This document shows positions 1,647-39,388 of a stretch of 64,000 bases of DNA, piece after piece. Origin of the DNA: Cyanidioschyzon merolae (Eukaryota). Both the position numbers and the translations under genes were made by a program. The notes below the pieces were generated by a model, which saw only the letters and a list, made by a program, of their open reading frames with translations, was not told the DNA's origin and searched no databases. Position 1 is the first letter of the stretch; the number at the start of each line of letters is the position of its first letter. The stretch lies in the NCBI GenBank assembly GCA_000091205.1, contig AP006497.2; one strand, 5' to 3'.

Positions 1647-1695
1647 GACAAATGTTTGTGCCGCTTTTGGGGTCTGCCCCTGATCGTTATTAGAA

Positions 1696-2870
1696 CCCCA
1701 CCAGAAGAAACGCATTTTCCCACGGAAGCGGCAGCGAACGCCGTTCAACAGTCGAAAGTCGCCAGCAGTGTACAGTAGTTGCGAATGACCTGCCCTAGAC
1801 GAGACACGTCCGAATGACGTGCAGACGCCTCCCAGTATTTTTGGACCGGCCACCGACTACTGGTTCCATTTTTTTCTCATATAATCTAACCTTGAGATGT
1901 TGCCCTGCAAAAATTTCTCTTGTCATCTCTGGAGGCCTCTTGTCCATCACCGCACGTCTCCTGATATTGATAGTGGCATTAAAGTCTCGATTCACAAACT
2001 CCATGCGTTTCCTGCCATTGGTAGTTGTATTCATTAGTGCGAGTAGTCCGCGAATTTTCGCCTTAGTTTCCATTTGCACTTCCGCCAGCGCTTTGTACTT
2101 TTTTACACCCTCAAGGCTCGGCTGACACTGCTCCATCTTGACCTTCTGGAGCGTACACCACAGCTCGTGGCGTATGTTGGATGTTCGGAACTCATATATC
2201 GGTATTGTGACGAAACATCGTGCGCATTCCTTGTACGCTCATTGCGAGTTGCTGTAAACCGGAAACGAAATTCTCCTCGACAAGCCATAAAAGTGGTGTT
2301 GTGGCTTTCCGCCAGACACGGTGGCTGTTTTTGCCGTGTCCATGGTCCCGCAGGCGTGTCCCGGAGTGCGCTGACTCCATAAAAGCCGCGAGTTCGCGCT
2401 GCTGCCCTGGCATCGGGGTGCTGGCGGCTCCACAGCACAGATACCTCATGATGTGCGGGCGAAGCATGCTGCTTCAGCACCGTAAGAACGATGCGCTCTC
2501 ATGCGCGTTCCCCTATGATCCGAGATGTAATCCACAGAGTGATGCTGGCGGCTATGACCGAGCGTCTTGCATATAGAATGCAAATCTGGGAACTGCGGCC
2601 TAAGGCTCGGAGTTCCAAGTCACGAATGGTCCATATGCTCACGATCGGTACTCGAAGCGAGCGCGCTGGACATTATACACTGCTTTGCTGCACGAGAACA
2701 GTGCTATGCTCGGGGCCGGCTAGAGTACCTTACGAAAAGTCAGCAGGAACGTCGCTTTCAGGTACGGTGCGTGACACGGGCTAGGCGAGAGCGATCCGTT
2801 TGCGAATCATTTCGGAATGCGAATTCGATGTTCATGAGTGTCTTCCCGTAGTAATGCCTCTTTACTTCAG
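1696..2870 (-). pseudogene. TnpB/Fanzor-like nuclease relic, copy A (5'-truncated, C-terminal half best preserved)
   Basis: ORF 1795-2136(-) reads ...GRKRMEFVNRDFNATINIRRRAV... (RuvC-III DxNAAxNI; Asp codon 1984-1986). My translation upstream in the same frame gives AYKECARCFVTIPIYEFRTSNIRHELWCTLQKVKMEQCQ, preceded by an in-frame TGA and a +1 shift relative to copy B. Weaker nucleotide similarity to copy B continues to about 2600, including a degraded GxDxG region. The 3' non-coding tail at 1696-1794 matches the tails of copies B, C and D. Confidence 0.7.
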
Positions 2871-2901
2871 GTTCGAGGCGCGCCTGTTCGAGTTGGTTTA
2901 G

Positions 2902-3675
2902 CGCTTGCGTTCGAGCTTTTTGTCGATTCCATCGGGAAGCAGACCTGCTTTTTATTCTTCCTTGCACTCCGTGATTCAAGCCCATCACAGACGTGTTTTC
3001 TATCGTGAAACGTAATGATCGCTGCACTGGGCGAATCGCTGAAGCGTTCTGCACAATCACGTCGGAGCATATATCGTCGTTTTTCAGCAAGTCTTTCTCC
3101 CTCCGGGCAGGTCGTCGACTACGGGCATTCAGAAGTACGTGCATTTGTCGAAATAGAAAATCCATGCGAAAAGTATGGACATGAAAGTTAGGGATCCCGG
3201 AGGGTCGTCATTGCCAGGCGCCGGAAAAATGGATATATTGCTCTCCTCGTCGACCAGTGAGCGAAGAAGAGCAAGCGAAGATGATGACGAAGAAGAAGAG
3301 AATAGATAGGCGAGAAAAGATGGATGCCCGACGAGACGCTGGCGATTCTTTATTAGCACTGACGGCGCGAGTTCTAGCAATCCTGGCAATCGTGCGTTCA
3401 ACCGTCGACGATGCTCGCATGTAGCTCGTGAACCGAGACTTCACTGTCACCATCAATATCAGACGATGCGCGGTGCAGGAAACGATACCCGAGGAGCTAT
3501 GACGATCCAACTTCGTAGGGCATGCGCTCAGGCTCGACGCGTGCCTGGATACACTGAAGCTGCCAGCAGGTGGCTGGTCAGAAAAAATGGGAGGCTTCTG
3601 CACGCGGGCACCAGTTTAACCTCCATGGGCGCGAAATGCCTATCGTTTTACTGACTACAGACGTTCATTCTCGAG
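2902..3675 (+). mobile_element. Internally deleted (MITE-like) derivative of the Fanzor-like element; 5' module joined directly to the 3' end
   Basis: 2902-3190 aligns with 16058-16329, the 'U' 5' module of copy C. 3190-3400 aligns with the first ~170 bp of the nuclease gene (gggatccNgaggg..., cgacgagacgctggcga). At ~3425 the sequence jumps to the C-terminal end, gtgaaccgagacttcactgtcaccatcaatatcagacgatgcgcg (VNRDFTVTINIRRCA). This is followed by the conserved tail blocks cagcaggtggctggtc and gggaggcttctgcacg. Confidence 0.6.
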
Positions 3676-4541
3676 CTCGCTCGTACGGCCACCAGCAACT
3701 AGTATACTGTGTTAAGAAGCATGCACAGTGAAATTCCGCAAAAGCTGAGCAGTCACCTGCATGCTGTTCTGATCTGGTAGGCTCGTACGCCATTTGGAAC
3801 GTTGGAGTCGTTTGCTTGTGCCTCCTTCGCGAACGAGCGATGCGGCGTCCGGAACCTTGGCCAAAACGCGTTCCAATACATTATTTCGAAAAGCTGGGCG
3901 TGAGACGCGAGTCAGGACGAAACGGCAATGCGCGCTCAAAGTATGGAAGACTCGATAGAGTCGACCTATCGAAAACAGCTGAGAACCCGAGGATACCAGT
4001 CGAACTTCAACGGTCTTGGACGAAGTTCACAGCCTCAGCACTTGAAATGCCATCCAAATCGCATCAAAACTTGAATATTGTTATTCGGGAGCAAATCGCG
4101 TCTCCGCGCTGGCCTGCCAGGGTTACGCCTCCGATGCCGTTCAGGTAGCCTTCATTGGAACTGGTTGTCTCCCAATGAGCCGTCTCGCTCGGCGGACCGC
4201 TCCCGCAGGCAATGTGCGTTTCCATTCAAAGTCAATCACATGCATCAAGCGTTCCAGGCGCTGCTCATTCGCCTGCACGGGACACTCGCAGGGCAACACG
4301 CTCTGCAGGCACAAGACACTAGTACGATATGCGCGTCCTTCGCAGATCAGCTCCATAGATTGTGGAACCCAAACGACGCTCCACATTCACCCAAGGACGA
4401 GAGAGCGCCCGCCCCGCAGAGCGATGGGATCCGCACGCGGCTCCGGTGCGCAGCCGCTGCCACGCGTCGTTATCGGGAGGCCTCTTCCGACTGACGGCAT
4501 CAGGTCATCACACGCTCATACAATGCTCAATCTCCAACCGG

Positions 4542-6167
4542 CTACGGGGAAAAGCTCTGGAAGAAGGAAATCGAAAAACCCTCGTCAAACCGGTCGCCAT
4601 CGCCACGTCGCAGAATACGTGCCCAGTTGACTTCAAACCGACCGAGGCTCGTACAGCAGGCGAGTCCAAGACCCGCTGACATGCGCCAACTCTGGCGCCA
4701 CGCGACAGCGTCCGACCATTCCCGACAGTCACCTATTGCACAGAACGTGTGGAACTGTAAGCCGAGGGAGCGTGCCACTGCACTGGTAACGATCGGGACG
4801 CCTAGATGTAAACCTAGTTTGTAGTAGACATCTCCACCGATGCTGTCTCCATCGGCGCTGGGCCCTAGGCCCCGATTCCGGAAGCCTCGGAATGCATTCG
4901 CACTGCCGCCGACGAAAAATCGATCGCAGATCCTCGTCTGACGCAACGCATGCCGGGGGCCGGCACGGTGCTCGCTTTTCCGGTCTTTCATCGCAGCGAG
5001 CGCTTGGTGGAAGGGAATGATCATTCCCCCCTGGAAGCCAACTGAGAACACGATAGGAGGCATCAGACGCTCGGGTGGTGACGGGGCAGCGTCACCAGCT
5101 GCAAGTGAATCGTCCACATTGCGCACGAGTTCGCTGCCGTCGGCTCCCGTCAGTGGCACATTCCACTGCCACGAGAGCTCGCTTCGAATAAATCTCGTTG
5201 CGGGATCGCCACCGAGTCCCGCTAGTTCACAGTTCCACTGAGCATTCGTACCCTGACGAGGCGCCAGCGGATCGTCGCGACCATCCCGGGTCCAGGTGTA
5301 TTTGAATGAGCTCTTCACTGAGTGCCCAGCTTGTTCACGAACCCTGATGCTTGCGTGCGGTGCGACTTGCCCCAGCTCGCGCCAGCTGCACTCATAAGCG
5401 AAACGTCCGAACCGCGTCTGGAGGCCGGCTTCAAAGCTGCGCTGAAACTCACTATACGAACTTGTGTCCATGCGATTCAGCAGGGCGCTCTCGGCACTTG
5501 CCGTCGCCAATGCGTCCAGTAACCCCCAGGGATGTGGTTTTCGCCAACCGCAAACAAGATGATTCGTGGCTGTTTGTTTTGCAAATAGGTAGCGGTTCGG
5601 GTGCACCAGTGCAGCGAGGCTACTCAAACTCGAGAGCGCGAATCCGGACCCGCCGACGCCCGCACCAAGTTGGCAATGCAAAGCATCTCCCGTCCCAGTA
5701 AAGTTTATGAAGCCTCCATCAAGCTCGAGAGCGGTCTCGCCGGTGCGCGTATCGGTAGAGGTCCCAATACGGAGTGAAAAAGGTGGCGCCTCACGCACAG
5801 TAACGAGTGCATCGCAGGGCACAGACTCTGCAGTTGGCTCACCGTTCGCAGGGACCGCCGATTCATCGATGAGAATGTCCACTGCACGGAAACACTCGGT
5901 CAGACGGAGTCGCTCGGTTGCGAGTGACGCTCGTTCGAGGAGCTCCTCGAGTGTCAACGAGCGGCGGCTAGACTCAGGAGGCAACGAGTCTCGGTTCTGC
6001 TCCTCCGACAAAGATGCATCTAGGAGGCTCTGGACAAAGTCGATGCGAGTTCGTTCGACGCCGCGAATAATGACCCGCCGCAGACGAACTGTTTCACGCA
6101 AGATGTCGCGAACTGGTGCTTCAAGATTTTGCGCTGAGGCAGTAGCTTGCTCAGATCCGGAAACCAT
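4542..6167 (-). CDS. SAM50/Omp85-family (bacterial surface antigen D15) outer-membrane beta-barrel assembly protein
   Basis: ORF 4542-6224(-), start moved to the first ATG (complement of 6165-6167). There is a POTRA-like N-terminus, VRLRRVIIRGVERTRIDFV. The barrel motifs are VREQAGHSVKSSFKYTWTRDGRDDPLAPRQG, ELAGLGGDPATRFIRSE, FFVGGSANAFRGFRNRGLGP and GGDVYYKLGLHL. Confidence 0.8.
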   Translation of the reverse strand: MVSGSEQATASAQNLEAPVRDILRETVRLRRVIIRGVERTRIDFVQSLLDASLSEEQNRDSLPPESSRRSLTLEELLERASLATERLRLTECFRAVDILIDESAVPANGEPTAESVPCDALVTVREAPPFSLRIGTSTDTRTGETALELDGGFINFTGTGDALHCQLGAGVGGSGFALSSLSSLAALVHPNRYLFAKQTATNHLVCGWRKPHPWGLLDALATASAESALLNRMDTSSYSEFQRSFEAGLQTRFGRFAYECSWRELGQVAPHASIRVREQAGHSVKSSFKYTWTRDGRDDPLAPRQGTNAQWNCELAGLGGDPATRFIRSELSWQWNVPLTGADGSELVRNVDDSLAAGDAAPSPPERLMPPIVFSVGFQGGMIIPFHQALAAMKDRKSEHRAGPRHALRQTRICDRFFVGGSANAFRGFRNRGLGPSADGDSIGGDVYYKLGLHLGVPIVTSAVARSLGLQFHTFCAIGDCREWSDAVAWRQSWRMSAGLGLACCTSLGRFEVNWARILRRGDGDRFDEGFSISFFQSFSP

Positions 6168-6918
6168 CCGCGGGTGCGTACCAGTGCAGCGCTCCTTGAA
6201 GAAAGCTGCCGATTTCTCCACCACACACTGGAGACGTAGACCTCAGACAGTCGAGGTCGATCGCAGCTGCCGAGCCTTTGCAAAACCTGTCCACGGTGTA
6301 AGCAGACACGTCGTCCCCAAAAGTCTGCACCAGCGCAACGCCACATTGGTTCGGGCGAGCGCTTCCGCTGCCGAGGGCGATCCTGCGGGCCTGCCTGCAC
6401 AGCCGCTCGATGAGTGCATTGTCGCCCGTTCGGCGTTCTGGATCGACTGCGTTGAATGGGACTGCATCTGGCAGTGACGTCGGAGGTGTTATGGTGTCAT
6501 CTGGGTGTGCAACGATGCTCAAATGCGTTGCATGGGACTGCATCTGGCAATAACGATCGACCGCGTTGACAGGGACTGCATTTCGCACTAAAGTCGGAGG
6601 TGTCATCGTATCATCTGGGCCTCAAGTCGTTCGTGCAGTGTTGATGCCGGGTCGAAGAAAGGGACCGATTGCCCGTGCGCTTTTGTCCATGCGCACAGTC
6701 CCTGGAAGGCGGAGTGCGTTGATGATGGAGGTCCTTTTTGGATGCGTCCCCCAGATATCCCGCTGTTCAGACTCAAAAGGGTGACAGTCCTATTGAAAAG
6801 GTTCTCGTGCATCATGCCGCTCGCTAGTTTCGTCCCGGACAGCAAGGATAACCCCTAAAAGAGCTACAGACCACGGCGACGAGCTCGATGAACAAGAGTC
6901 TGCTCGTTCGGCGGCTGA

Positions 6919-6922
<4 letters not shown>

Positions 6923-6957
<35 letters not shown>

Positions 6958-6958
6958 C
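6923..6958. repeat. (GCA)12 microsatellite
   Basis: Twelve uninterrupted GCA units read directly, about 130 bp upstream of the eL41 ATG. Confidence 0.95.
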
Positions 6959-7085
6959 GTTGCGCTGTCACGATCGAATTCGTGACATCACCGCCGCGCT
7001 TCACGGACGGCACACATCGCGCACCATCTACGAGCACATCTGTTTTCGCGCTGTACGCTCTTGAAGAGCAAAAACCAGGTGGCAT

Positions 7086-7163
7086 ATGAGGGCCAAGTGG
7101 AAGAAGAAGCGTATGCGCCGCTTAAAGCGAAAGCGACGAAGGATGAGACAACGTAGTAAGTAA
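7086..7163 (+). CDS. RPL41: 60S ribosomal protein eL41 (25 aa)
   Basis: atgagggccaagtggaagaagaagcgtatgcgccgcttaaagcgaaagcgacgaaggatgagacaacgtagtaagtaa translates to MRAKWKKKRMRRLKRKRRRMRQRSK*. This is the near-invariant eL41 sequence. It is too short to appear in the ORF track. Confidence 0.85.
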   Translation: MRAKWKKKRMRRLKRKRRRMRQRSK

Positions 7164-7554
7164 GGCTGCTCTTTTCGTCTCCATAAATGTTGGCAGCTTG
7201 GCTCGCAACGTGCACGACAGGCACTCGGGGCGCCAGTTCATGAACGAGCTCGCGGCTGTGTTGCCGGTTTACGTGTTGGGGCGACTCTTTTTAGCTGAGA
7301 GTCGTCGTTGTCGTTGTCATAAATTGCGACACAAAGTATTTGCCGCCTCTTCTTCTCTAGACGGGTGAGTTGAAGCTACGAACTCGGAGGGCACAACTTT
7401 GACCTCGGAAACGAACCAGTTGGAACGGTAACCACTTTTAGCGGTATTATAAACAGGACGGACAGCCTTTTCCCCCGATCACTTGCAAGATGAGACTCTC
7501 CAGAAAACGAGGCGTTCGCCGGTCTCTACGAACACTGGCCGCGTGCCCGCTGCG

Positions 7555-8547
7555 TTAGTGCGTTTGCTGGATCTCCCGTTGAATCTCAGCAAGCGCCAGG
7601 CGCACGTCCCGCTCTGTTACCACCCTGTTTTCTCGTGCACACTCTTGGAAGAGGCTGTACAACCGCCTTTTGGCGGCGCCCCAGGCATATGCGTACTCCA
7701 GCTCCAGCACCCGCTTGCCCTGAATCGAAGGCGGAAACGGAGACATTTCCACGTCGACGGCACCATCCGCAGCCTGTTCCTCATCAAAAAGCCATTCCAG
7801 ATGCGCAGCGTTTCGTTGTGAGCTGCAGGCGTCACATGGACAGACTACCGCCTCCAGTTCCTCCACAGTCACAAATATCGGAGCCATTTGCTCCGACTGC
7901 GTCGACGTGTCGCTGTCAAGTACCGCTTGCGCAATGCAAAGCGGTTTCGACACGCTGCCCGCTGCCTTGGCAGCGGGCACCCATAGCGCCAAGGGGCTGC
8001 AGCTCCGCCGGCACGCAGTGCACACAAGCAGCCCGTCCGTGGAGCCCGTCGTCGCGTCCAGGCCACCGAGGCACTTGACGTGGAACCAGTCCTCACAACC
8101 AATACACTGGTGCATGGTGTCGTCTTTCTCGCCTTGATACTCGGCGTCACATACACAGAACCTGTTTCGAGCGTTGTGATGCTCTCGCAGCCACCACACC
8201 TGAGAGGTCGGCAACGGCGCAGCGGCAACGTCGCTTAGCGCACAGTGCGGAGGCGCACACTGGCATACGAGTCCGTGCTTGTTTCCCAGCGCAAACGTGT
8301 CGTGGTCTGCGTGGCAGGCATCCGCACACGCCTGGCATACGATGGACGGTAAACTGGGGCCCTCGGGCAGCGCTGCCCGCGTCGTGCACGTCCGACAGAC
8401 ACACACTGCTATTGCACGTTCTGCTTGAGAGCGCTCGCGAGCACACTGCCAGTTGTGCTCTGGACACGCAGCACTGACTAGGTCCTCCAAGGTCACCACA
8501 TCCTCTGAGTCTTCGACTGAACCGAGAGCGTGCTCACTAGACCCCAT
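7555..8547 (-). CDS. UBR-box plus PHD-type zinc-finger protein (UBR7-like)
   Basis: ORF 7555-8574(-) starts on TTG; the first ATG gives MGSSEHALG at 8547. A Cys/His-rich UBR-like block reads CVCRTCTTRAA...CQACADACHADHDTFALGNKHGLVCQC. A PHD-like block reads FCVCDAEYQGEKDDTMHQCIGCEDWFHVKCLG. Confidence 0.6.
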   Translation of the reverse strand: MGSSEHALGSVEDSEDVVTLEDLVSAACPEHNWQCARERSQAERAIAVCVCRTCTTRAALPEGPSLPSIVCQACADACHADHDTFALGNKHGLVCQCAPPHCALSDVAAAPLPTSQVWWLREHHNARNRFCVCDAEYQGEKDDTMHQCIGCEDWFHVKCLGGLDATTGSTDGLLVCTACRRSCSPLALWVPAAKAAGSVSKPLCIAQAVLDSDTSTQSEQMAPIFVTVEELEAVVCPCDACSSQRNAAHLEWLFDEEQAADGAVDVEMSPFPPSIQGKRVLELEYAYAWGAAKRRLYSLFQECARENRVVTERDVRLALAEIQREIQQTH

Positions 8548-8575
8548 GCTTCGGGCGCCGTGGCAAAAGTGCAAA

Positions 8576-10919
8576 CCCCTGGAAACAAACGTCTTTCAAA
8601 AGAAAAACGATGCAGCCTGCGGTATACAGAAATGGCGCGCAGCGCGCCCGAGTCAGAACGTCTCCAGCTGACGTGCAGTCGCCTCCCCGTCTTTTTGGAC
8701 CGGCAACCTACTACTGATTCCAACTTTTTTTCATATAATTCCACTTTGGGAGGTTTTCCAACAACGTTCTCTCTTGTCAACTCTGGAGGTCTTTTCTCGA
8801 GCACCGCACATCTCCTTATATTGATGGCGGCGTTAAAGTCTCGGTTCGCAAACTCCATACGTTTCTTGCCATCATTGGTTGTACTTACTGATGCAAGCAA
8901 TCCTCGAACTTTCGCTCTCCTTTCCATTTGCTCTTCCGTCAGCGCTCCGTACTTTTTCGTATCCTCAGGGCTCCGCTAGCACTTTTCCATCTCCACCCTC
9001 TGAAGTGTACACCCCAGTTCATGGTGTGTATACGATGTTCGAAACTCATCCATTGGTATCGTAACGAAACGCCTCGCGCACTCCTTGTACGTTCTTGTCG
9101 TTGGAGCTGGAGTAGTCCCTTTTTGGGTCTTCCAGCGCCCTGCTCCGTACCCTGCTACGAGCCTCTGACTTTTATCCTCCTTCAGGGCACTCAACTGATT
9201 GAAAAAACTCTCGAACGCACGCTGCTTACCACACTATAGATTCATTCGCAAACGAGCCCACCGGGGCTTGGTATACTCCTCCCACAATGCATTCCAATGA
9301 GCAACGCGAACTTCCATGAATTTCCGAAAAGCTTTAAAGTCCGCTCCTCGGCTCGTCACCTCGCTCACAGCTTCCAGGTGCTCGTTCATTCCTGCATTCC
9401 ATTTCTCGATTTTCTTCCTCGTATTCATGATTCCCGATTCTCGATGGTATCTCGCTCTCGAGAACCTCAAAAGACGCATATCTTTCTGATGCAAGGTACC
9501 GTCAGTACCATCTTCCCCACGCTTCGGTGCTGCGATGGTTATGATACTTGTGTTTCCAGCGTCCGCGCCAACGACAAAGTCGTTCTCGTGCATCTTCTGT
9601 GTCGCAGGACCCGCCTTCTTCTCATCTTCATGGTTCTCCGAGGGCGGAACGGGCCGATCCACACTCAACCGCCGATAGTGTATGCACCTGGCTACTCCAT
9701 CGGTTTCGATCATCCCAGTGAATACCTTTTGTCTGCTTACTTTCAGACGTTTGAAATCGAAGATACTCTTCCGGGGCATCTCCCGGTTTTCGTCGGTGAA
9801 CTCCTCCCTGCGAACATCGAACTCCGGACAGATCTCCTTCAAGATGCCATGAAGGATTCTCGAGTCCATAGTCACAAAATGTGACTTGATATTGCAAATT
9901 GGAACCATGTTGAAGCGCTTCCCCATTAGGGCCGACTTCCGCCTCTCCCACTCTTTATTTGTCTCCTCACTCAGCTTCCTCTCTGCCTGGCGTTCGAGTT
10001 CTCGGTCCAGAACCACAGAATAGCGCAGGACGAGGCGATAGTATCTTTCCTTAACTTTTTTTCAACTCTGATATCTTTTCTGTTGGATTCGCCAGCTCCA
10101 AGACTGCACGGTGCTCTTGTATTACGGCACGGATGACGGAGTCCTCATTCATGCTCTGGTTTGACGCCTTCTTGTCGACGAATTCGATCTCATCTTCATG
10201 CTTACGATCGTTCGTGGTGCCATTGAGGTCCGCCTATACTCCATTGCGAGAGATGCGCGGGTAGCGTGCAAACACGGCACGTATCATGAAACGTTCGAGG
10301 TTCATTGTCAAATGGTTCTTCAGATTCGTGAGGTATTTCATGGCCCCATAGTCCTAAATATCCCGGTCACCCCTATACCGAGTACCCTCGAAGCGGAATT
10401 CCGGGAAGGTTTCGTGGAGGACATGCACTGCTCATTTTCCCTCCGCGCTTTCGCTGTACCAAGCATCAGGTGACGAATAAACGTCGTGTCGAAGAATTCT
10501 TCCGGAATCTCGACTGTTTCCATGTGCGTCACGTCGCGATACATCTCCTTCACCAAATGCATCAGTCCTATAGAGTCCATACGAACCCTCGTGAAGTACG
10601 AATCAACATAATTTCTGATGGCCTCTCGCAGATTTTGCTTGTGCGGATCCTGAATATGGCCTAGATGGCATGATTTCTTTACAATCTTGAAGTAGGGTCG
10701 TCTTTCGAGTTGCATTTGGCGCCGGGCCCCCCCTTGTTTTGCGTCATCGTCGTGTCTTGTTTCTCTTCGGTCGGTATTCTTTTTCGCTTTTTCCGCTAGC
10801 CGGCGACGCTGCCCCTCCAGGATCCTCCACTTCCTTTTCCATAACTTTCCTCTTTTATTTTTTTGTAACGCACTTTGAACGCTTCTGCTATAAACCGCGA
10901 AAAAAACACGAGAATACAC
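8576..10919 (-). pseudogene. TnpB/Fanzor-like nuclease relic, copy B (full length, disrupted)
   Basis: Four collinear ORF pieces are present.
- 10338-10919: basic N-terminus KRGKLWKRKWR.
- 9234-10016: ...[18 protein letters not shown], RuvC-I GxDxG.
- 8976-9194: ...RRFVTIPMDEFRTSYTHHE.
- 8493-8927: ...KKRMEFANRDFNAAINIRRC, with the RuvC-III Asp codon at 8838-8840.
An in-frame TAG at 8976-8978 is CAG (Gln) in copies A, C and D. Further stops and shifts lie between 10016 and 10340. The tail ends ...cgtttgtttccagggg at 8576. Confidence 0.75.
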
Positions 10920-11650
10920 TTGTTTGAGGTTTGAGACACAAATGAACGGAAAAACTGTACTTTGCTACAACTTTAACGCAAGTACAACTTTTATATTAGA
11001 GCAGCACGCTATTGATCAGGATCGCGTTTCCCTTCAGCTGCGGGATGCGCGTCGTGACTCGAAAACTAACAGATCTCCCTGGTGCGCAAATCGATAGCGC
11101 TATGTAGAACAAAGAACAGAGACTCACGACTAGCGAGCAACGATACAGCAATTTCTCTCCCGTTCTACGATAAACGTTGAAAACGGGGAAAAGGTTCCCA
11201 TATTCTGAAGAGTCCTCCCTCTAGGCGAAAAGTCCCGCGAGCCGGACGAGTCTCCCGGACTCGTGCTTCGTGCTCCACCCAGTAGCGGGCGCTGTGGCGA
11301 GACCTGAGCAGTTCGTCCGCAACGCGGTTCATTCTGGGACTAGATGCGGGATGCTGTGTTTGGTCGTCGCCCTGATCGCAGTAGACTCCTAATATATCGG
11401 TTCGCGCTTTCGCAGGCAGTAGTTCTGTCTGTTTAGCCTACAGGCTCCCAGAATTATTCTGGACTCCAACGCTGTATCAGGTAAAGCGTTCCTCAATCCG
11501 TCGCCCTCAGTGGTATGGCAACGCTGTTCTATCTCCATGATGCATCCGTCCCAGTGGTATAGGCGCTAAGGCGGGTGCCCAAAGCAGGCACTCGGTCGCA
11601 CTACAGAACGCACAAAACGATCTGTACATCCGAAAGGAAGTATAAGGAAC
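10920..11650 (-). repeat. 'V' upstream module attached to copy B (homologous to 36290-37062 of copy D)
   Basis: The reverse complement of 10920-11650 aligns by eye with 36290-37062. Matching pairs include tttttcgcggtttaYAScagaagcgttcaaa, gagccggacgagtNtc, gacctgagcagNtcgtccgca, and caggcactcgg...gtaYatccga. Confidence 0.6.
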
Positions 11651-11897
11651 GGAGCATGGAGGTAGAGTGCATCATGATGGACACTTTTTCGATCAGCTAT
11701 ACCCATCCATCTCGCTATCTGGAATCCAAGTACAATGTAAACGTTTTGTCATTGGAGAGAAATCAGCGGCAACAGCAAATGCAGCGGATTTTGTTCCATG
11801 TGAAAACTTCTCACACAGGCGAGCGTGCCGCGACTCTGTGTGCTTGCTACCTGCGCGCGGTGAAACTTTCGTCGTTCCACGCTTTACGTCCGAGTTT

Positions 11898-12185
11898 CAT
11901 AACCCATACTTCTTCTCGGATGTACTGGCGTTTCAGACGTACTATCGGGCGCCGAGTGCCTGCCCGTGAACATCCGCCTCAATAGCGCTTGTAGCGCCGG
12001 TGCTGTCGTAGCACAGAAACAGAACGGCGTTGCCGTACCGCAGACGGCGTCTGCTCGAGGCATGCTTCACCTGACGTAGAACTGGGTCTCGTTGTCAGGT
12101 TGTGCTCGGACAGCCTGCGGATGCAAAACTTGCTTTCGCTGCACAACACATTGGAGAAACTTGGCTGTTACGATGAATCCTGGGA
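11898..12185 (+). repeat. Second, inverted partial copy of the V module (homologous to 22052-22338)
   Basis: 11915-12170 aligns with 22069-22323 at a constant offset of ~10154. Shared strings include ctcggatNtNctgg, gaacggcgttgccgta, gacgtagaaNNgggtctcg and ctggagaaacttggctgtta. Its first ~165 bp form an inverted repeat with 11479-11641. Confidence 0.6.
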
Positions 12186-12701
12186 GCCGCCTCTCTCCTG
12201 CGTGATCGTACATGGAAAGCGTCGCCCTCGGTTGGCGACTCGGGTCTGTGCTTGGCACCCACCAGTGAGTAGGTACGCGTAACACTGGTCCCGTGTGCGC
12301 ATCTGGTTTGCTGGACCTTCCACCTAGAAGGTAGAGTATGAGTTCGCTGACCACTGGTGAGTGCTGGAGCTCAGTTACGGGACCATCAGTTGCTAGCACT
12401 ACACTCAAAGTAAGTGGCTGGCCTTCATTTACCACAGTGATTCCCAGATGTTAATGTCTCTCAAAGAGATAGCTGCGTTCTTTTTTTCCAGCACAGGCAC
12501 AGAAAGCTTAAGTGTGCTGGCGTCTCTGGCATCCCGATTCCGCTGCACCGAACGCCGCGATCCTTCGAAGCCCTGCATCGCGAGCACGCTGCCGCCCATC
12601 GTCGATGATCACGAAACGATTTTTCCGTTCGTGTTGCATGAACGTTTGCGTTCTTACTTGATTGCAACTCGCAGTTTCATTGTTGTGTATAACGCTGGAT
12701 A

Positions 12702-13424
12702 ATGTTCGTGCTTACAACAAATAGCCTTACGTTTAGAACGGTGCCTCGGTGTTATCCTGGTACGGTCGAACGTCAGCATACAACGCTGGGCAGGAAGCGT
12801 GTGGCACTGCGCATGACGTATGCGCTGCCGAGTACAGTTGATAACGCGCGTGGAGGGAGCGGAAGCGGTGGCGACGGTGGCGGCTCCTCGGGCTCCGATG
12901 ACGACTACATACCAGATATGGGGAAGCGCACGCTGCTGAGCCTCATTCTCTTGGGTTCAGTTGGACTCCCAGCAAGCATCATGCTGAGCACATACGCAAG
13001 CTACTTCATGCCGCCGTCGAAGAACAAGAGTTCAGGCGGCGTGATTGCCAAGGACGCCCTCGGGACGCCTATCAAGAAGGAGGAGTATCTGAAGACGCAT
13101 CCCCCCGGCTCTCGTGATCTTGTGCAAGGCCTGAACGGGGAGCCCACGTATCTTGTTGTGAACGACGCCGGCGAGCTCGAAACCTACGCACTGAATGCTG
13201 TTTGCACGCACCTCGGCTGCGTGGTGCCTTGGTACGCAGCACAGAACAAGTTCATTTGCCCTTGCCATGGCTCGCAGTACGATCGTACAGGGAAGGTGGT
13301 GCGCGGTCCAGCTCCGCTTCCGCTCGCTCTGGCACATACCAAAGTGGATGATGACGGGTTCGTACAGATCAAACCCTGGAAGGAGACCGACTTTCGAACT
13401 GGTGAGAAGCCCTGGTGGAAGTGA
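12702..13424 (+). CDS. petC: Cytochrome b6-f complex Rieske iron-sulfur subunit precursor (nucleus-encoded PetC)
   Basis: The ATG is at 12702. The Rieske boxes are [10 protein letters not shown] and [20 protein letters not shown], and the b6f-type C-terminus reads [29 protein letters not shown] helix [21 protein letters not shown] is present. An N-terminal extension of about 70 aa is consistent with a targeting peptide. Confidence 0.9.
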
Positions 13425-14410
13425 TGTTCTGTAAAATACCTAGTGTGTTGGAGGGCGCGGTCGAACAGACCTCGAGTGGTAAACGACATGCTTTTAGCTT
13501 GACTTGGTCGTAGTGCAATGCGCGATCATACGGCCTGTGGGCCAGCGGAGACGGCCTCGTAACGAGACGTTTTCGGGGTTCCCGTTTCTGCTGCGCACGT
13601 TCGACGTGTCTGTTCATGACCAGACTGTGATGGATGGACCCGAGGAGCAGCGCTAAAGACGCGCCCTTTCCGAATACATGTTGAAACGCGGTGCGAAACA
13701 GTCTCACGAAGGGCACGCACGAAGCGGAAACCCGGCAGTGTCTCCAGGTCACGCTCCACTGCATTGAACGTAGCGCCTTGGATGCACCGGTGGATATCGG
13801 ATTCGAGTACTACACGAGACGCAAAACGACGGAATGGAGAGGCGTCCTTGTTCCCACGACCAACTCTTGGCCAGGTACACCTACATGGCGCGCTTCCATA
13901 AACAGACAGCCCCACGACAGGTTCATCTCAATCACTGCCTGGAGAATATCATCAGACCAGTTGCTGGCCTGATGCAGACGAAGCGTGAACGGACGCATAT
14001 CGGTATCATGCACTGAATGCACAGAGACAAGTCCGTTGTCGACGGCAGCGCTGCAGGCATATTTGCACATGTGCACTTTATCGGGGGCGCGTCTTTGCTA
14101 GCTTGCTTGCTTGCTACTGGATGCTCGTTACCGCTTGTGGCGCCTTGCGCTCCAAAAGAGGTCTTGGAATAACAAAGTTCCGGATACCGCAGAACGCGCT
14201 GTTTGTAGCGAACGCAGCACGTCGCCTGCACCAGGCTGCCCCAGACTCGAGTGCCGACCAGCGAGCAGGCGGCCGCGGGTAACCTCGACGACAACAGCTC
14301 TGATTTGCGAAGACTCCCCAAAAAGCCAACAAAGTCCAAAGGTGCTTTCAACGTGGAAATCATCCCAGTCGGCCGCACAGGTTGCGGACGATTACCACCC
14401 AGAGCGAGGT

Positions 14411-14668
14411 TTAGCTGGTGTCCGGCGTTTGGCCCGTCACCGCCGGGTTCGGAAGTCGCTCTTCACGTCGTGCCTGGCGTATTTCGGCCAGCCAAAGGTC
14501 ACGACAGCGTCGATAGCACTCTTTCTTTTCGCGGCAGGTATCGTGTGCCCCAGGCTGGCGCTTGGCTTCCCCGACGCAGCGTAGCGCCTCCTCCCTGAGC
14601 CTAGCACAGGGGTCCGCCGGCGCTGCCGGACTCACCACGCTCGTCGAAGACGATCGCGCAGCGCTCAT
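14411..14668 (-). CDS. Small twin-CX9C (CHCH-domain) protein, probably mitochondrial intermembrane space
   Basis: ORF 14411-14767(-), trimmed to the internal ATG (MSAARSS...). Two exact CX9C pairs are present: C-ARLREEALR-C and C-REKKECYRR-C. Confidence 0.5.
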   Translation of the reverse strand: MSAARSSSTSVVSPAAPADPCARLREEALRCVGEAKRQPGAHDTCREKKECYRRCRDLWLAEIRQARREERLPNPAVTGQTPDTS

Positions 14669-14983
14669 GGCAAAAACGCAACTCGTGAACGTCCCCCGGC
14701 TGCTGGGTTTTCCTCTCGCAACAAGCTCGACTCGAAAGGCAGCGAGATGTCTACCGAAACATTCCAAGCGTTTTACGGATCAGTGCGCCCTCAGCAGCGC
14801 CGTGCGGAAAAGCGCTCTGAACGATTGGATGGGATCCAGATGCCTATGCTGCAGGGTATTTCCTGTGAATGCAGAGCACTCGTTTCCGGTTTCTATGTTG
14901 CCGTCGCATGCACAGGTGTAAGCGGACAGTGAATTGACCTCTTGCGCTGCACTCGTGAAATGTCGAGCACGAATTCATCCATG

Positions 14984-15403
14984 TCAAACTGAAATGGTAT
15001 TTGCCGCAAGCTTCCCATGAAGAGGCATTTGCTGGTCGCATTTGGACTTTGGAAGCGATGCTGAAGACAAGTTCATCGCCGCGAACTCGCGTTGGAGCGG
15101 GATGCTTTGGCATTTCGCGACTGCAAAGCAACGTTCAGTGAGTGCTGGTGAGTGCCAGCACGCACATGCCAGCACCATGCCCTGAACAGACCCAGAAAAC
15201 GAATCGACGCGAATGTTTAGCTGCTTTTTCACCAGATGTGTCATATTGGCATCTATCGGATGCGTGAACGCTACCATCAAAGAGGCCCGAGGTTTCCGTT
15301 CTTGTAGTCTTTGTACTAAATTCTGTTTCACTTCCGCTGCGATGTCTAGAAGGAGATCGAAATCACAATGCAATGCATAGTGTAGATCGTAGATGATTTG
15401 CAT
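14984..15403 (-). CDS. Hypothetical protein (139 aa), no recognisable domain
   Basis: ATG-initiated ORF in an otherwise unassigned interval. I recognise no motif. Confidence 0.2.
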   Translation of the reverse strand: MQIIYDLHYALHCDFDLLLDIAAEVKQNLVQRLQERKPRASLMVAFTHPIDANMTHLVKKQLNIRVDSFSGSVQGMVLACACWHSPALTERCFAVAKCQSIPLQREFAAMNLSSASLPKSKCDQQMPLHGKLAANTISV

Positions 15404-16057
15404 GTAGCATATACATTCATTTCTGAACAGTGCAAGGAAGACTGTATTCCTCGTTTAGGACAGTCATACCACCGTACTCAGATGGTTGGCAAACACTGTA
15501 AGAAAAATGTAGATGCACTCCGTGCCAGAGATCGATATTCATTGAGGTCGCTTGCAGTCGATCTTAGAAAACGATCCGTTGATCACCATTTTCGGAAAGC
15601 AACAGCGACGATAATAGCCGCCACAGGCGTCACCGTTTCTCAACAGCTTATTCTTATGATCCCGAAAACATTGGGATACAATCTCAAAAAAAGTCATCGT
15701 TCAAGCAAAGGCATCTTCCATCCAAATCGCAACGACAGAGTCCCTGGAACGTCACGATCGATAGGAACCACTGGATCGTCAGTTTGTTTGTTCAGTTGAT
15801 GAAAATTGCTTCAGAAGGCACGCTCGGAGCGTCAATGGGTATTCGAGGTGAAGGGCGCCCGTTGTACGTTCGATCGAGCTCGAAGAGAACGACGAAATCA
15901 TCATCTATTATAGCTTTAGAAGATTTATTTGGCGGCCTCAGTTTCACTTGTAGAAAAGACACATGCAACAGCACCAACCAATTTGTCCAAGCATTGAAGA
16001 CTTTTACCCGACGTCTGGCGACGTCCTTCTATTGGGCAACGTGGCATATCACCATAT

Positions 16058-18612
16058 CGCTTGCGTTCGAGCTTTTTGCCGATTCTATCGGGGTAGGGGT
16101 GATTTTTGTTCGTCTGTGCGCTCCGTGGTTCAAGCGCATTGTAGGAGTGTTTTCTATCGTGAAACGTGATGATCGCTCCCCCGGGCGAAACGCTGAGCGT
16201 TCATCACTCGGTAACACATCGGGGTACATGCCATTTATCTTGCGAAAGCCACGCTCCCTCCGAGAAAGCCCTCATCTAAGGGCAAAAAACGTGCGGTCGT
16301 TTTGACGAAATAAAACTCCAAAACAAAGCTATGCACGTGCAAGTCGGGGATCCTGAAGGGCCCTTGCCGCCGGCTGGCAGAAAAAAACGAAAAATTCTGC
16401 CAATGGAATAGGAACAAAACAGAACGAAGAAGCAAAAGGGCGAGGCCCGACGTCAAAAGCTGCGCGAAAGACGACTATGCGACGAGACGCTGGCGAAAGC
16501 CTGTCTTGGTAACCATATCAAGGATTCGGACAAGCAAACATGCAACAAGTCATCCGAGACCGTGTCGAGTCGCACTCCATGAGTATTGTAAAGGATTCTT
16601 CAGGACTAATGCCTTTGACGAAGGAGATGAATCGCGGCGTGACGGGCATCAAAACAGTCGAGGTTCCGGGAGAATTTTTCAACACCATCGTTATGCATCA
16701 CCTGATGCTTGGCACAGGGGAAACGTCGAGGAGAAAGGAGCGAATGCATGCCCTCCACAAAATTACCCCGAATACCCTTTTCATCGGTAATCGATACCGG
16801 CGTGACTCGGATATTTACACGTACGGGGCGAAAAAGTACCTCACGAACCTAAAGAACCATATGAACATGAACCTCACACGTTTCATGATACGTTCCGTCT
16901 TCGCGCTGGACCCGTGCCTCTTTCGCAAAGCGATAGACGGGTTACCATCAATGGCATCTCGAACGATAGTAAGAACGAACAGGAGATCGAACTCGTCGAC
17001 AAGAAGACCTCGCACAGGAGCATGAATGAGGCTTCTGTCATCCGCGCGGCTATTCAAGAGCACCGTGCACTCTTGGGGCTCGTTGACCCAGCAGAACAGG
17101 TATCAGAGATGAAAAAGATGGAAAAAGAAAGATGTTACCCACACTTCCTGCGCTATTTCGTGTATTTGGACCAAGAACTCGAACGCAAGGCTGGGATGGA
17201 GCAGGGTGTGCGGAAAAATGCAGAGTCGGTAGAACGGAAGGCTGCGCTTGCGGGTACGCGCTTCGAAGTCGTTCGGTTATGCGAGATCAAGTCGCACTTT
17301 GTGACAATCGACTCCAGAGTCCTTTACGGAATACTGAAGGAGATAAGTTCGGGGCTCGATGTACGCAACAAGGAGTTCACCGGTGAAAATCGGGACACGT
17401 ACTGGACGCATGTCTTCGACGTCAAGCGTCTCAATACGAGCCAGAAAAGGTATTCAGAGGTGTCATCGAAACTAAATGAGTAGCCATGTGTGCACACGAT
17501 CGGCGCTTGAAGGCAGATCGTCATATCGTGCCTTCGGCTTCGCCCGTGACGAAGCATGAAGATGTGAAGCAGGCGGATCCCGCGACGCAGGAGGTTCAGG
17601 ATACTGGCTTTGGCGGCGGCGCGGACCCTGGGATGACGAATATCATAACGATCGCAGCACCGAAGCGTGCGGGAGATGGTGCTGATGGTAACCTGCGTCA
17701 GATAGAAATGCGTCTCTTGAGGTTCTCGAGACCGAGATACTACCGAGAATCCGGTTCAATGAATGCGAGGAAGAAAATCGAGACATGGAATGCAGGAGTC
17801 AAGGATCAGCTGGAAGCTATGAGCGAGGTGACGATCCGACATGCGGACTTTCAAGATCTGCCAGAGTTCATGGACACTCAAGCTGCTCATGTCGAGGAGC
17901 TGCGGAAAGAGTATCGAAAACAAAGGTGCGCTCGTCAGCGTTTGAATCTGTACAGAGAGAACCAGCGTGCATACGCCAACGATTTCAATCCGTTGAGCGC
18001 CTTGAAGGAGGACGAGAGTCAGAGGCTGGTAGAAGCGTATGGGGCAGCGCGCTAGCTGGCCCGAAAAGGGACTACGCCAGCTCCAACGACAAGAACACTC
18101 AAAGAGCGTACACGGCGTTTTGTTACGATACCAATAGGTGAGTTCCGAACATCGTATACACACCATGAAGTGAGGTGCGTACTTCAGAGGGTCGAGATGG
18201 AAACGTGCCAGCGGAGCCAAGAGGATATAAAAAAGTACAGACCGCTGACGGAGGAGCAAATGGGAAGGAGGGCAAAAGTTCGCGGACTCCTTGCATTCGT
18301 GAGTACAACCAATGATGGCAAGAAACGCATGGAGTTTGTGAACCGAGACTTTAACGCCGCAATCAACATCAGAAGATGTGCGCAGCTGGAGAAAAGACCT
18401 CCAGAGTTGACACGAGAGAGAATTTTGTCAGACGACCTCTCAAGGTCGAAGTATACGAGAAAAAGTTGAAACCAGTAGCAGGTGGCCGGTCGAGAAAGTC
18501 GGGAAGGCGTCTGTACGTCGGCGTATAGGCATCCGATCTGCGGCGCGCCGCTCGCCACTCCTGTACCCCTAGCGACAGCGTTTTTCTTGTGAAAGGCGTT
18601 TGTTTCCAGGGG
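16058..18612 (+). mobile_element. Fanzor/TnpB-like element copy C ('U' 5' module + disrupted nuclease gene + conserved 3' tail)
   Basis: The U module 16058-16329 matches 2902-3190. The gene pieces are 16540-17025, 16914-17483, 17486-18055 (...GGGADPGMTNIITIAAP; Asp codon 17624-17626) and 18170-18469 (...MEFVNRDFNAAINIRRCA; Asp codon 18347-18349).
Lesions:
- frame changes near 16535 and 16925;
- TGG to TAG at 18053-18055, where copy B keeps Trp;
- a +2 bp 'ga' insertion near 18417, which breaks the C-terminal ...TRENFVRRPLKVEVYEKKLKPVAGGRS.
The tail ends ...gaaaggcgtttgtttccagggg at 18612. Confidence 0.75.
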
Positions 18613-18652
18613 TGCCCAGGGGGTCGCTTTAGCCTAGCTTTTGGTCTCGAAA

Positions 18653-20743
18653 ATGCCTCAATGGGACAAGCGCGCCAGACAGCGAAGAAGCAACCAGTCT
18701 CGTTGGCGTCGGGAACCATGGGAGACGCAGGAAGTCGCTTCACCGTTAAGTTGGCTCTGCTTGCCTGCGCGTGTGCTAGCGTGCTTTGGCTCACCTCCGA
18801 GCGAAGAGCTCGCTGAGTCGGCGCAGCCGCCCGACGACATTGTGCCTTGGGAGGACTCCGAAACCGCCGACTCGTCTTCTCAAAGCAGTTTTGGTGGCTC
18901 TGATGAAGGTGCGCGCCAAGAGCTTGCGTGCCGTACGCGAGCGGAGAAAGTGGACGGCAACGGCGCTGGCACCGAGAACGACCAGGATGAGCAACTATCC
19001 GTCGAGCTGGACGCGCTTCGTCGACGTCGCTCCTTCTCGGCCACGAGCTTCCACTTGCCAGCTGTATCCCGTCCAACAGCGGCAGGTAGCATTGTCGACA
19101 TACCGTCAGAGCGTCCACAGACCGCGCAACGCAGAGAACGTCAACGTATCGTGGGCAAGTTGGCGCTCGTTGGGCTCGGTACTCAGCTTCTGCTGCTCAG
19201 CTTGAAGTTGTACAGATTTGAATCGCTCTCACCAGCGTATCTCGTTTTTTCCGTCGCGTTTTTCGTGTTCAGCGGAGGACTTGCTTTCCTGAGTCTCCAC
19301 TACTTTAAAATGGGGCGCCTGCCACCTTTTCTGGATGTGGCTGCAAAACGGCGAGAAGCGTCGCACAACCGTTCGTGTGGGACAAGCCCGGCCCGCTCCA
19401 ACACCGACTCGACGATGCGTACGCTGAGCGGAGCGGGTTCGGCGTTCAGTACTCCAACGGCGGACAGATCGCCATGCACGCCCAAGTCTCGAATTGCCTC
19501 GCGCTCTCGAGAGTACGCTCAAAGCTTCCAAGAAAAAGGCGATGCGCAGGTCGTCAGAACGTCATTTGACTCGCGATCAAACCGACGAATCTTCTCAGTG
19601 CTGGGTGTCGAGAGCTCGCAGTCATTTTGCGAGCAACAGGGGTGCAGTACAAGAATGCCGAGCAAGAGTCGACCGGCAGCGATACGAATCGACGTTACCA
19701 GCGAGCGTACCGCGGCAACATCAGCGAGCGATGACGCAGTTAGTGCGGACAACATCGCCGTGTCCGTCAGAGAGCCGTCCACGCTCTCTGATGCCGATGC
19801 TGATCATACAGAGCATGGTATCGAGAAGCGTCGCGGCACCTTCCGCGAAAAGCCCGGCCAGCGAGGCACGCCCGGTGTTCGCGCTGCTGTTGCCGAAACC
19901 CAGCGACGACATGTGCAGCGGGCGACAGAAACTCGTAGCGCCGGCGCACCGGCCTTGCCGGTACCAGACGCTTCGGACCAGATGAGAGCTGGCGCATCCT
20001 TAGAGCAACGGCGTCGATCCCGCGAGGCATCCTCTCTGTCAGACGACGGAACGCCTCCCGAAGTGCAAATTGAGTCACTGCGTATTGTAGAGAGTTGGGA
20101 GAAGATGCGTATAACAGCAAAGAAGGAAATCTTAGCGGAAGATTTTTGCGAGGGAATGCTCAGTCTATTGAGCGTCATCGATGCATTGGGTCCCGCTTTT
20201 CGAATCATCAAAATCGACATTCGAAATCATGTGAATGGGATCCACCGCAGCTGCACGAAACACAACTGCCGCACCCTGCAGCGCCTCATTGATGCAGAGT
20301 CGAATCGGGTATCACGCTGGTTGAATCCATCGGGCATTGGCGATGGTACGGAACATGTGCTCTGGATGAAACGGGCCATGCAGTTTGTGTACATGCTGTT
20401 GTACATGTTTTTGGATGGCATCGATTTAGACCGGTGTGTATACCATGCATATCGCATGACGCTGCGAGCCTGTCACCCGTACATTGTCCGGAAAGTAGCG
20501 GAGAACCTGCACCGCTTCGTCCCTACCAGAGCTGGCTTTTTGCGCAGAATCCACGCAGATGAGGACTTTGTTTTAACGCAAATGCGGCGATTCTTGAAGG
20601 CAATCGAACCGCGTCTTGATATTATCGTTGAGGTATTCAACGCAAACCAGCTGGAACCGCACTGTCGATTCTCATGCGCAGAATTGCGCCGGCTGGCACA
20701 GCACTGTGCAAAATATGATATCGACGAGGATATGACGCAGTGA
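18653..20743 (+). CDS. Membrane-anchored protein with C-terminal glycolipid-transfer-protein (GLTP) domain
   Basis: ORF 18641-20743 starts on TTG; the first ATG is at 18653 (MPQWDK). Predicted TM segments are LALVGLGTQLLLLSLKL and YLVFSVAFFVFSGGLAFLSL. The GLTP-like C-terminus reads LSLLSVIDALGPAFRIIKIDIRNHVNGI...GTEHVLWMKRAMQFVYMLLYMFL...YHAYRMTLRACHPYIVRKVAENLHRFVPTRAGFL. Confidence 0.7.
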   Translation: MPQWDKRARQRRSNQSRWRREPWETQEVASPLSWLCLPARVLACFGSPPSEELAESAQPPDDIVPWEDSETADSSSQSSFGGSDEGARQELACRTRAEKVDGNGAGTENDQDEQLSVELDALRRRRSFSATSFHLPAVSRPTAAGSIVDIPSERPQTAQRRERQRIVGKLALVGLGTQLLLLSLKLYRFESLSPAYLVFSVAFFVFSGGLAFLSLHYFKMGRLPPFLDVAAKRREASHNRSCGTSPARSNTDSTMRTLSGAGSAFSTPTADRSPCTPKSRIASRSREYAQSFQEKGDAQVVRTSFDSRSNRRIFSVLGVESSQSFCEQQGCSTRMPSKSRPAAIRIDVTSERTAATSASDDAVSADNIAVSVREPSTLSDADADHTEHGIEKRRGTFREKPGQRGTPGVRAAVAETQRRHVQRATETRSAGAPALPVPDASDQMRAGASLEQRRRSREASSLSDDGTPPEVQIESLRIVESWEKMRITAKKEILAEDFCEGMLSLLSVIDALGPAFRIIKIDIRNHVNGIHRSCTKHNCRTLQRLIDAESNRVSRWLNPSGIGDGTEHVLWMKRAMQFVYMLLYMFLDGIDLDRCVYHAYRMTLRACHPYIVRKVAENLHRFVPTRAGFLRRIHADEDFVLTQMRRFLKAIEPRLDIIVEVFNANQLEPHCRFSCAELRRLAQHCAKYDIDEDMTQ

Positions 20744-21683: not shown

Positions 21684-22051
21684 CGCTGCGCGCCTCCGCG
21701 CGTAACCGCTATGTTTTTCGTGGAATACGACGTCTGCGATGAACCTGAATATCTCGAGTACGTGATTGTTGTCGGCAACGAGAAAACAGGCGACAATTCC
21801 TTTTCAGATGGTTTGATGCTTCACGCCTGCCAGCACAGTCTCTCGATTCGAACATAGGATTCGACTCAACGACTTTTGGGCTACAGTGCTCACTCGACGG
21901 TAAGCTCGCCACGACATCCGATTCTTTTCATGGACAAAACGTTTCCATCGGCCAGCGTTCTCCGATTACGCGCATTTTTCTTTTCTTACTTTTTTTGTGT
22001 TTTTTTTTCAGTGCGCGGTGAGGTATCCACCAAATCCCCTACTTCCATGTT

Positions 22052-22338
22052 ACATTACCTGCACTTCGTCTCGGATATTCTGGTCGTTTCATACGTCCTA
22101 TCGTGTGTGCCTAGTACCTGCCGAAAGCGACAGCAATAGCGCCTACAGCGCCAGTGCGGTCGCTGCACGGAGACAGAGCGGCGTTGCCGTAACACAAAGG
22201 GCGGCGGCTCGAGGCGTGGCTCACCCGACGTAGAATCGGGTCTCGTCGTCAGTTTGTGCTCGGAGAGTCTGCGGATGCAGGCTTGTCTTCGCAGCACGAC
22301 ACGCTGGAGAAACTTGGCTGTTAGGATATATCCTGGGA
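22052..22338 (+). repeat. Solo fragment of the V module (matches 11898-12185)
   Basis: See the 11898-12185 feature. The core ctcggatattctggtcgtttcatacgtcctatcgtgtgtgcctagtacctg also matches 36294-36342 in copy D. Weaker similarity may extend left to ~21930. Confidence 0.6.
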
Positions 22339-39341: not shown

Positions 39342-39388
39342 TATCAGCCGTGGTCGCGCGTGTTTATTCGGTCTTCGACAGGCGCGAC

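Follow-up and report, generated by a model that had tools for sequence, protein, structure and literature searches.

A near-identical 2.17-kb core in two otherwise diverged, predicted Fanzor1-type relics of Cyanidioschyzon merolae is probably the product of non-allelic gene conversion

We analysed a window of 64,000 nucleotides from contig AP006497.2 of the hot-spring red alga Cyanidioschyzon merolae (assembly GCA_000091205.1), which holds five broken copies (A to E, none of them intact) of a dispersed repeat that we assign, by predicted fold, to the Fanzor1-type elements. Copies C and D, which lie in the same orientation 20.7 kb apart on one chromosome, share a core of about 2.17 kb that is almost identical between them. 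This tract makes them the outlier pair of the family: their cores are the most similar pair that we found, their heads are unrelated, and their tails are among the least similar, falling below the 5th percentile, so that core and tail give conflicting relationships. In our assessment, the tract was probably produced by non-allelic (ectopic) gene conversion without crossover. The coordinates of the copies and of their modules are collected in Table 1.

Self-BLAST of the window aligned 16325-18513 with 37057-39247 at 98.2% identity over 2192 columns with 36 mismatches, the offset between C and D being 20732 at the left and 20734 at the right. The original prediction, made by eye, of two collinear stretches at 16330-18491 and 37063-39224 with an offset of 20732-20733 thus describes a real tract, and its coordinates are off by only a few bases from those given by the alignment (16325-18489 and 37057-39222). 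The edges were profiled in a global alignment of both regions with 1 kb of flank, read in 50-column windows. C-D identity is ~0.35 to the left of the tract up to 16319/37051, 0.88-1.0 from the left edge through 18468/39201, and, past ~18489/39222, ~0.5 for ~100 bp and then ~0.35. At the left junction an AAAG match is followed by mismatches at 16329-16330 and by an unbroken match from 16331 (ATGCACGTGCAAG...), and at the right junction the match stops after GGTGGCCGG at 18489. At both edges the step takes only a few bases, and the abrupt collapse of identity first noticed by eye is therefore seen both in the windows and at base level, with no gradual decay. Chance is excluded as the source of the right-edge step, because ~56 mismatches in 128 tail positions have P ~1e-64 under the 1.6% mismatch rate of the core.

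Within 16325-18489, ~34 differences between C and D are scattered over the full tract, which indicates that the two copies of the window were assembled separately. Only two differences of one nucleotide in length were found: C lacks a G at 17110, close to the position (17112) first proposed, and a C at 18490, which is the right tract edge itself; the A-run at ~16380 that had been taken for the other length difference is an A/G substitution at 16379. Judged from the N-termini of intact relatives, the left edge lies ~15-25 codons into the Fanzor open reading frame (ORF) and the right edge ~10 codons before its end. The right edge sits within sequence that is homologous family-wide, and it is not an end of the element. 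At the right edge copy B, a full-length dead relative that serves as the outgroup, runs on in collinear alignment with both C and D, and at the left edge it does so with D; the tract is thus an in-register replacement rather than an insertion. Two further origins were considered and ruled out: segmental duplication, since the flanks outside both elements are unrelated, and nested insertion of a 2.17-kb unit, since the register with copy B is kept at both ends of the tract.

The mosaic becomes clear when the modules are compared one by one. C carries a rare 5' module, here called the U head, and D carries the V head, the standard 5' region of the family; no homology between the two heads was detectable beyond ~40 bp. 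The U head had been linked to a mini-element at 2902-3190 and the V head to copy B, and both links agree with the alignments (Table 1), the U head being collinear with mini-element E up to and beyond the tract edge. In the last 440 bp of the core, identity is 99.3% for C-D and 84% for both C-B and D-B, whereas in the adjoining tail it is 55% for C-D, 72% for C-B and 62% for D-B. The tail of C therefore resembles that of B, as the original prediction held, but the companion claim that the tail of D resembles that of A is weakly borne out, because its identity to A (59-64%) is no better than that to B (62-63%) or to other members.

These contrasts were set against the family background, for which contigs of Joint Genome Institute (JGI) metagenomes were scanned with the conceptual protein of copy C, yielding 79 loci. 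When 30 distinct family tails, among them window 18490-18614, 39223-39354 and 8575-8698, were aligned and compared pairwise, the C-D identity of 56.4% fell below the 5th percentile of 59.8%, the median being 68.6%. Core comparisons gave the opposite picture: among 252 pairs from 23 loci of one assembly the median was 80%, and C-D, at 99.1%, was the only pair to reach 87.5%; in a second assembly, none of 153 core pairs was above 87.5%. The absence of any other pair at or above this level means that there is no sign of recent transposition in the family. The core of C and D was found otherwise only in their orthologues, its best match elsewhere being 78-82% identical. Proximity alone does not homogenise family copies, since paired Fanzor 3' ends that lie 3.5-3.9 kb apart on other contigs (L019, L067 and L078, Table 1) are only 73-82% identical.

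A mosaic of this kind could also have been made elsewhere and then moved: a pre-formed chimera, for example a U head with a D-like core and a B-like tail, might have been mobilised in trans into the site of C or D with no local conversion at all. The family is indeed modular, its heads being interchangeable and occurring also as solo repeats, much as the 5' 635 bp of CMe-1A, a repeat described from C. merolae, also exist as a separate element, TE-N2_CMe (PMC3627910); moreover, a working copy could in principle mobilise dead ones. Against it, no other young pair was seen over the 252 and 153 comparisons; the core is confined to C, D and their orthologues; and C and D are close to each other and in the same orientation, as local conversion predicts. 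We consider this route unlikely, and the original argument that the mosaic is more easily explained by conversion between copies 20.7 kb apart than by recent transposition gains weight from the family comparison.

Both copies of the core are pseudogenes. C and D have three in-frame stops in common, among them the TAG at 18053-18055 and 38786-38788, and also four frameshifts, and although both copies retain GGADPG, GEFRTS and NRDFNAAINI, the frame that holds these motifs is broken. The shared stops and frameshifts indicate that the copied template was already a pseudogene, in agreement with the original reading of the TAG and of a shared frameshift as marks of a dead template. They also lead us to reject selection on functional cores as the cause of the C-D likeness, an explanation to which we give practically no credence: at least four frameshifts besides the three stops are present in both copies, the C-D differences are not concentrated at synonymous positions of any open frame, and identity to copy B of this family reaches only 76%. 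B (10063), like the metagenome versions of C and D, has the extra G seen at D 37843, and the absence of this G at 17110 is private to the C copy of the window, where it locally restores the frame. That a frameshift is common to copies 76% identical suggests, unless the alignment misleads, that the family spread from an already defective source.

An independent assembly was used to judge whether the two copies are real. Window 15376-63297 has a counterpart, at 99.0-99.3% identity, in contig Ga0078972_1003392 (48 kb), where C (L003) and D (L002) both occur, separated by ~20.7 kb; each is set in its own flanks and shows the same tract edges. This contig is good indirect evidence that the two-copy structure is real, and it argues against the assembly artefact that the original prediction had named as a concern. 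Among the other orthologous contigs, L011 holds the 3' part of C with its right flank, and L009, L012, L075 and L077 are orthologues of B. A different arrangement is seen in L021 (Ga0080006_1118256), whose positions 1-10194 align to window 12327-18513 and 37057-43258, so that the left flank of C is joined to the right flank of D via a single core mixing C-type and D-type variants. This contig may record a true deletion of 20.7 kb by crossover between the two copies, but a collapsed repeat is more likely. If natural, the deletion would remove the GLTP and kinesin genes among others.

The variants within the tract are distributed differently in its two parts. Seven sites in the first 290 bp (16325-16614) tell C and D apart both in the window and in the Ga0078972 contig, whereas over the remaining 1.87 kb (16615-18489) no site separates C from D in both assemblies. 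Over the latter stretch the two Ga0078972 copies do not differ from each other and have in common nine variants that neither window copy shows, and the window copies differ at 23 sites that are private to the window or shared with contigs L011 and L021 only. Within the window, the difference density is 3.1% in the first 290 bp vs 1.3% in the rest (Fisher p = 0.037), which is only suggestive. This pattern fits a later, shorter conversion or continuing exchange, and it fits a collapsed metagenome repeat equally well; we make no claim of concerted evolution. The possibility that the tract itself was made by assembly, by writing one repeat consensus into two old elements or by duplicating one of them, draws on the hybrid core of L021 and on the identity of the Ga0078972 copies over 1.87 kb, which may be a collapse. 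It must be reconciled with ~34 differences along the tract of the window and with a second assembly that has separate flanks and repeats both the edges and, within the first 290 bp, all seven copy-specific sites, and we regard it as highly improbable.

Gene conversion is thus our favoured explanation, and the course of events would be as follows. C and D would have been two old, independently derived and already inactive Fanzor1-type copies of ~3 kb. A DNA break in one of them would have been repaired by homologous recombination from the other, without crossover, and ~2.17 kb of the recipient core would have been overwritten. The tract would have stopped at the left where the U and V heads offer no homology, and at the right at GGTGGCCGGT, the last block of good conservation ahead of the fast-diverging tail. 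Since then, the two copies would have drifted apart by ~1.6% in total, about equally on each. When the differences were polarised with B, 15 changes fell on C and 13 on D, and this ~15:13 split, together with the spread of the differences along the tract, argues for one event followed by drift. The event is not very recent, as ~1.6% is about twice the divergence of the window from the Ga0078972 strain in the flanks. Two reports describe nuclear gene targeting by homologous recombination as established in C. merolae (PMC3764038, PMC8642924), which indicates that homologous recombination is available in the group.

As to direction, there is a weak hint that D may have been copied into C, because the head, core and tail of D are all ~62-76% identical to B, whereas C has an unusual head. 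Tests of direction with the other copies gave no clear result, mini-element E being too degraded (37-61% identical to everything), no family core coming closer than 78-82% and the tails having no close relatives.

Several observations weigh against conversion and should be kept in view. No pre-conversion allele was found in any strain, the orthologous contigs L002, L003, L011 and L021 all carrying the tract already, so that the conversion as such is an inference. The longest exact run shared by B and C is 26 bp, a poor substrate for recombination; if C and D were only ~76-84% alike beforehand, as B is to them, recombination between them would have been inefficient, although they may have been more similar to each other. 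Finally, the left edge coincides with the loss of homology of C to both B and D (16341 vs 16325). The left edge thus marks a structural breakpoint as well, which leaves the right edge as the only one lying purely within homology.

What initiated the break is a separate question, on which the sequence past the right edge has some bearing. The ~125-bp tail is conserved family-wide, including the distant metagenome locus L001, and in two intact-looking relatives it is predicted to form four hairpins (z-scores of -4.1 and -1.5). From its position at the end of the ORF, we regard the tail as a candidate guide-RNA (omega RNA) scaffold, which is a lead only. RNAalifold found no consensus structure in the 30 aligned tails, Rfam gave no match over the whole window, and an all-pairs covariation scan of the tails was uninformative, as the terminal hairpin comes in two variants, GTTCGACTTTCGAAC and CGTTTTTCTTTTGAAAGGCG, which both pair but do so in different registers.

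By analogy with the restorative homing of TnpB and IscB, the initiating break might have been cut by an active Fanzor-guide RNA complex supplied by another copy. The family is Fanzor1 by predicted fold and has intact relatives in related organisms (P0001, 752 aa); its tail has the position, and in intact relatives the predicted hairpins, that would be expected of a guide-RNA scaffold; the tract ends exactly at the start of this tail; and nuclease-stimulated gene conversion has been described in bacteria in a review of OMEGA systems (PMC13565253). Yet no intact copy was found either in the window or among the contigs 99% identical to it, the tract is internal and does not comprise the whole element, the drop in homology accounts just as well for where the right edge lies, and restorative homing uses the sister chromatid, not a paralogue. 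A guided cut seems to us very unlikely. The same low weight applies to its generalisation, in which Fanzor elements would swap nuclease-coding cores by guided-break repair while keeping their own heads and guide-RNA tails. To read the end of the tract at the structured tail as a footprint of such a process, and repeat exchanges among strains as its continuing activity, is likewise quite doubtful.

The assignment of the repeat rests on structure prediction. The conceptual translation contains the motifs GADPG...DEFRTS...NRDFNAAINI, and in intact relatives three RuvC-like motifs (GADPGNTNI, VDEFRTS and NRDFNAAINI) were recognised in this order by inspection. A protein reconstructed from copy B found 65 metagenome relatives, including the intact 752-aa P0001 at 63% identity. 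The AlphaFold model of P0001 has a mean predicted local distance difference test (pLDDT) score of 74, and when compared with the PDB by Foldseek it had SpuFz, GtFz and PpFz among its top seven matches (E 3e-14 to 4e-12), with a template modelling (TM) score against SpuFz of 0.57/0.69; TnpB (8h1j) followed at E 0.09. Because this model matches solved Fanzor1 structures, the repeat is, by predicted fold, a Fanzor1-type element. Sequence searches were less telling. Pfam gave no match for the window fragments, the reconstructed B protein or P0001, and scans of the ORF fragments and the B protein with Pfam and NCBIfam returned noise only; PF07282 (TnpB/Cas12f TNB domain) matched 5 of 20 family members, with a best E of 1e-5; a search of PDB sequences, with a single protein and with a 20-sequence profile, gave no meaningful match; and DUF8286 is listed (precomputed) for many relatives. 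Just upstream of the first RuvC motif, many relatives (P0001, P0014, P0021, P0024, P0039 and others) carry tandem repeats of ~22 aa (TKDEDEKEADPATQEVEDNDLVV) in 1 to 6 or more units; in P0001 these occupy residues ~374-470 and are disordered in the model (pLDDT <35). C, D and B each have a single unit, at ~17560-17620 and ~38290-38350 of the window in C and D.

Table 1. Positions of the repeat copies and their modules in the window, and of paired Fanzor 3' ends on three metagenome contigs (numbered on those contigs)
Feature	Positions	Strand	Remarks
Near-identical tract, copy C	16325-18489	+	~98.4% identical to 37057-39222; stepwise edges
Near-identical tract, copy D	37057-39222	+	Partner of 16325-18489
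U head of copy C, rare 5' module	16052-16324	+	81% identical to mini-element at 2899-3049
3' tail of copy C: last ~10 codons and structured 3' region (candidate omega-RNA part)	18490-18614	+	Family-wide conservation
V head of copy D, standard 5' region of the family	36171-37056	+	73-75% identical to B 10849-11769
3' tail of copy D	39223-39354	+	Homologous to family tail
Copy B, full-length (~3.2 kb) dead V-type element, outgroup	8575-11769	-	~76% identical to C and D over core
Copy A, 3' fragment: RuvC-III region and tail	1770-2244	-	~77% identical to B, C and D
Mini-element E: U head, ~200 bp of N-terminal coding sequence, internal deletion, C-terminal remnant and tail	2899-3640	+	
Paired Fanzor 3' ends, L019	1888-2402 and 5830-6339		
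Paired Fanzor 3' ends, L067 and L078	~2540-2800 and ~6010-6280		

The extent of the element follows from copies B and D. Their homology sets in abruptly at GAYTTTTTTTCG/ATGACAAAACGTTTACAT (position 36171 in D and 11769 in B), which many loci have as their left end, spans ~3.2 kb and ends just beyond the terminal hairpin (D ~39354, B ~8575). The ORF of copy B is interrupted by frameshifts and stops. Copy C is homologous to B and D from 16325-16341 onward only. The V head measures ~880 bp, and V-like sequence was present at 44 of the fetched metagenome loci, whereas outside the orthologous contigs a U-like piece was found at 1 of the 79 loci, where it lies 3.5 kb from the Fanzor gene. Heads also occur alone: solo repeats at 21922-22338 and 11885-12500 (+), and at 4401-5130 of L001, open with the Fanzor left-end motif (TTTTTTCA/TTGACAAAACGTTTCCAT) and match the 5' region of the intact L001 Fanzor gene at ~76-81% identity, and one such repeat adjoins the left end of copy B. 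They resemble the relationship of TE-N2_CMe to CMe-1A, in which the head of an element is also a separate short repeat. A CAG microsatellite at 36150-36165, a few bases upstream of the left end of D, differs in length from its counterpart in L002 (3073-3088), and at 60964-61257 a 98-bp unit stands in tandem in three copies that are 99% identical.

The neighbouring ORFs are eukaryotic and plastid-related, coding for a kinesin, GLTP, a PHD finger protein, Omp85, a DUF1995 protein and an M16 peptidase. The GLTP-domain gene (18641-20743) follows copy C and the DUF1995 gene (39215-40345) follows copy D. The M16 peptidase is 99% identical to a JGI metagenome protein, 70% to its counterpart in Cyanidiococcus yangmingshanensis and 51% to that in Cyanidium caldarium, which places the host among the cyanidialean red algae. 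Look-ups by exact protein sequence of three further ORFs (31094-33643, 52177-54087 and 42811-43953) returned no record.

These results have consequences for how the family is read. The similarity of two copies cannot be taken as their age, as C and D would look young only through overwriting. The family is built of exchangeable heads, cores and tails, which matters for any reconstruction of active Fanzor elements or of their guide RNAs. The 2.2-kb repeat misleads metagenome assemblers. Finally, C and D offer a clean and well-bounded instance of probable recombination between dispersed transposon relics in the very compact genome of an extremophile.

Fanzor1 elements have been known in cyanidialean algae since 2013 (PMC3627910). 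Bao and Jurka described CMe-1A from C. merolae in that year as ~150 copies of ~3 kb, ~80% identical to their consensus and without terminal inverted repeats (PMC3627910). Compared by description only, the family of the window is alike in having ~3 kb, a single Fanzor1 ORF, no recognised terminal inverted repeats and old copies at ~80%, and its 5' region, like that of CMe-1A in the form of TE-N2_CMe, is also a separate short repeat, as seen in the two solo repeats of the window. That paper reports no conversion between copies, in contrast to what we propose for C and D. The solved Fanzor1 nucleases SpuFz1, GtFz1 and PpFz1 (PDB 8gkh, 9cer, 9cf0 and others) match the predicted fold of P0001, but share only 12-15% sequence identity with the family; the cysteine cluster that usually lies between RuvC motifs two and three is not evident in it, and the window copies, unlike these nucleases, are pseudogenes. 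Restorative homing of IS605/IS607 elements by TnpB or IscB (PMC13565253) is similar in that element sequence is copied by homology-directed repair. There, however, it is the empty donor site that the nuclease cuts, and the element is restored in full from the sister chromatid, whereas in C and D an internal segment would have passed between paralogous dead copies.

Ectopic gene conversion also takes place between yeast Ty elements. Among human transposon copies, conversion has been documented for long terminal repeats (LTRs) and Alu (PMC6598467, PMC4921805, PMC8230782). With these LTR, Alu and Ty cases, C and D have in common the abrupt-edged near-identity inside diverged repeats, the conflict between tract and flanks, and the retention of both loci. 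They differ in the length of the tract, 2.17 kb compared with the typical few hundred bp, in their setting, which is a Fanzor1 family in a compact red-algal genome, and in that the tract covers almost exactly the coding part, leaving the different heads and tails in place. The phenomenon is thus a known one and calls for no new mechanism, and C and D are an unusually tidy further case of it.

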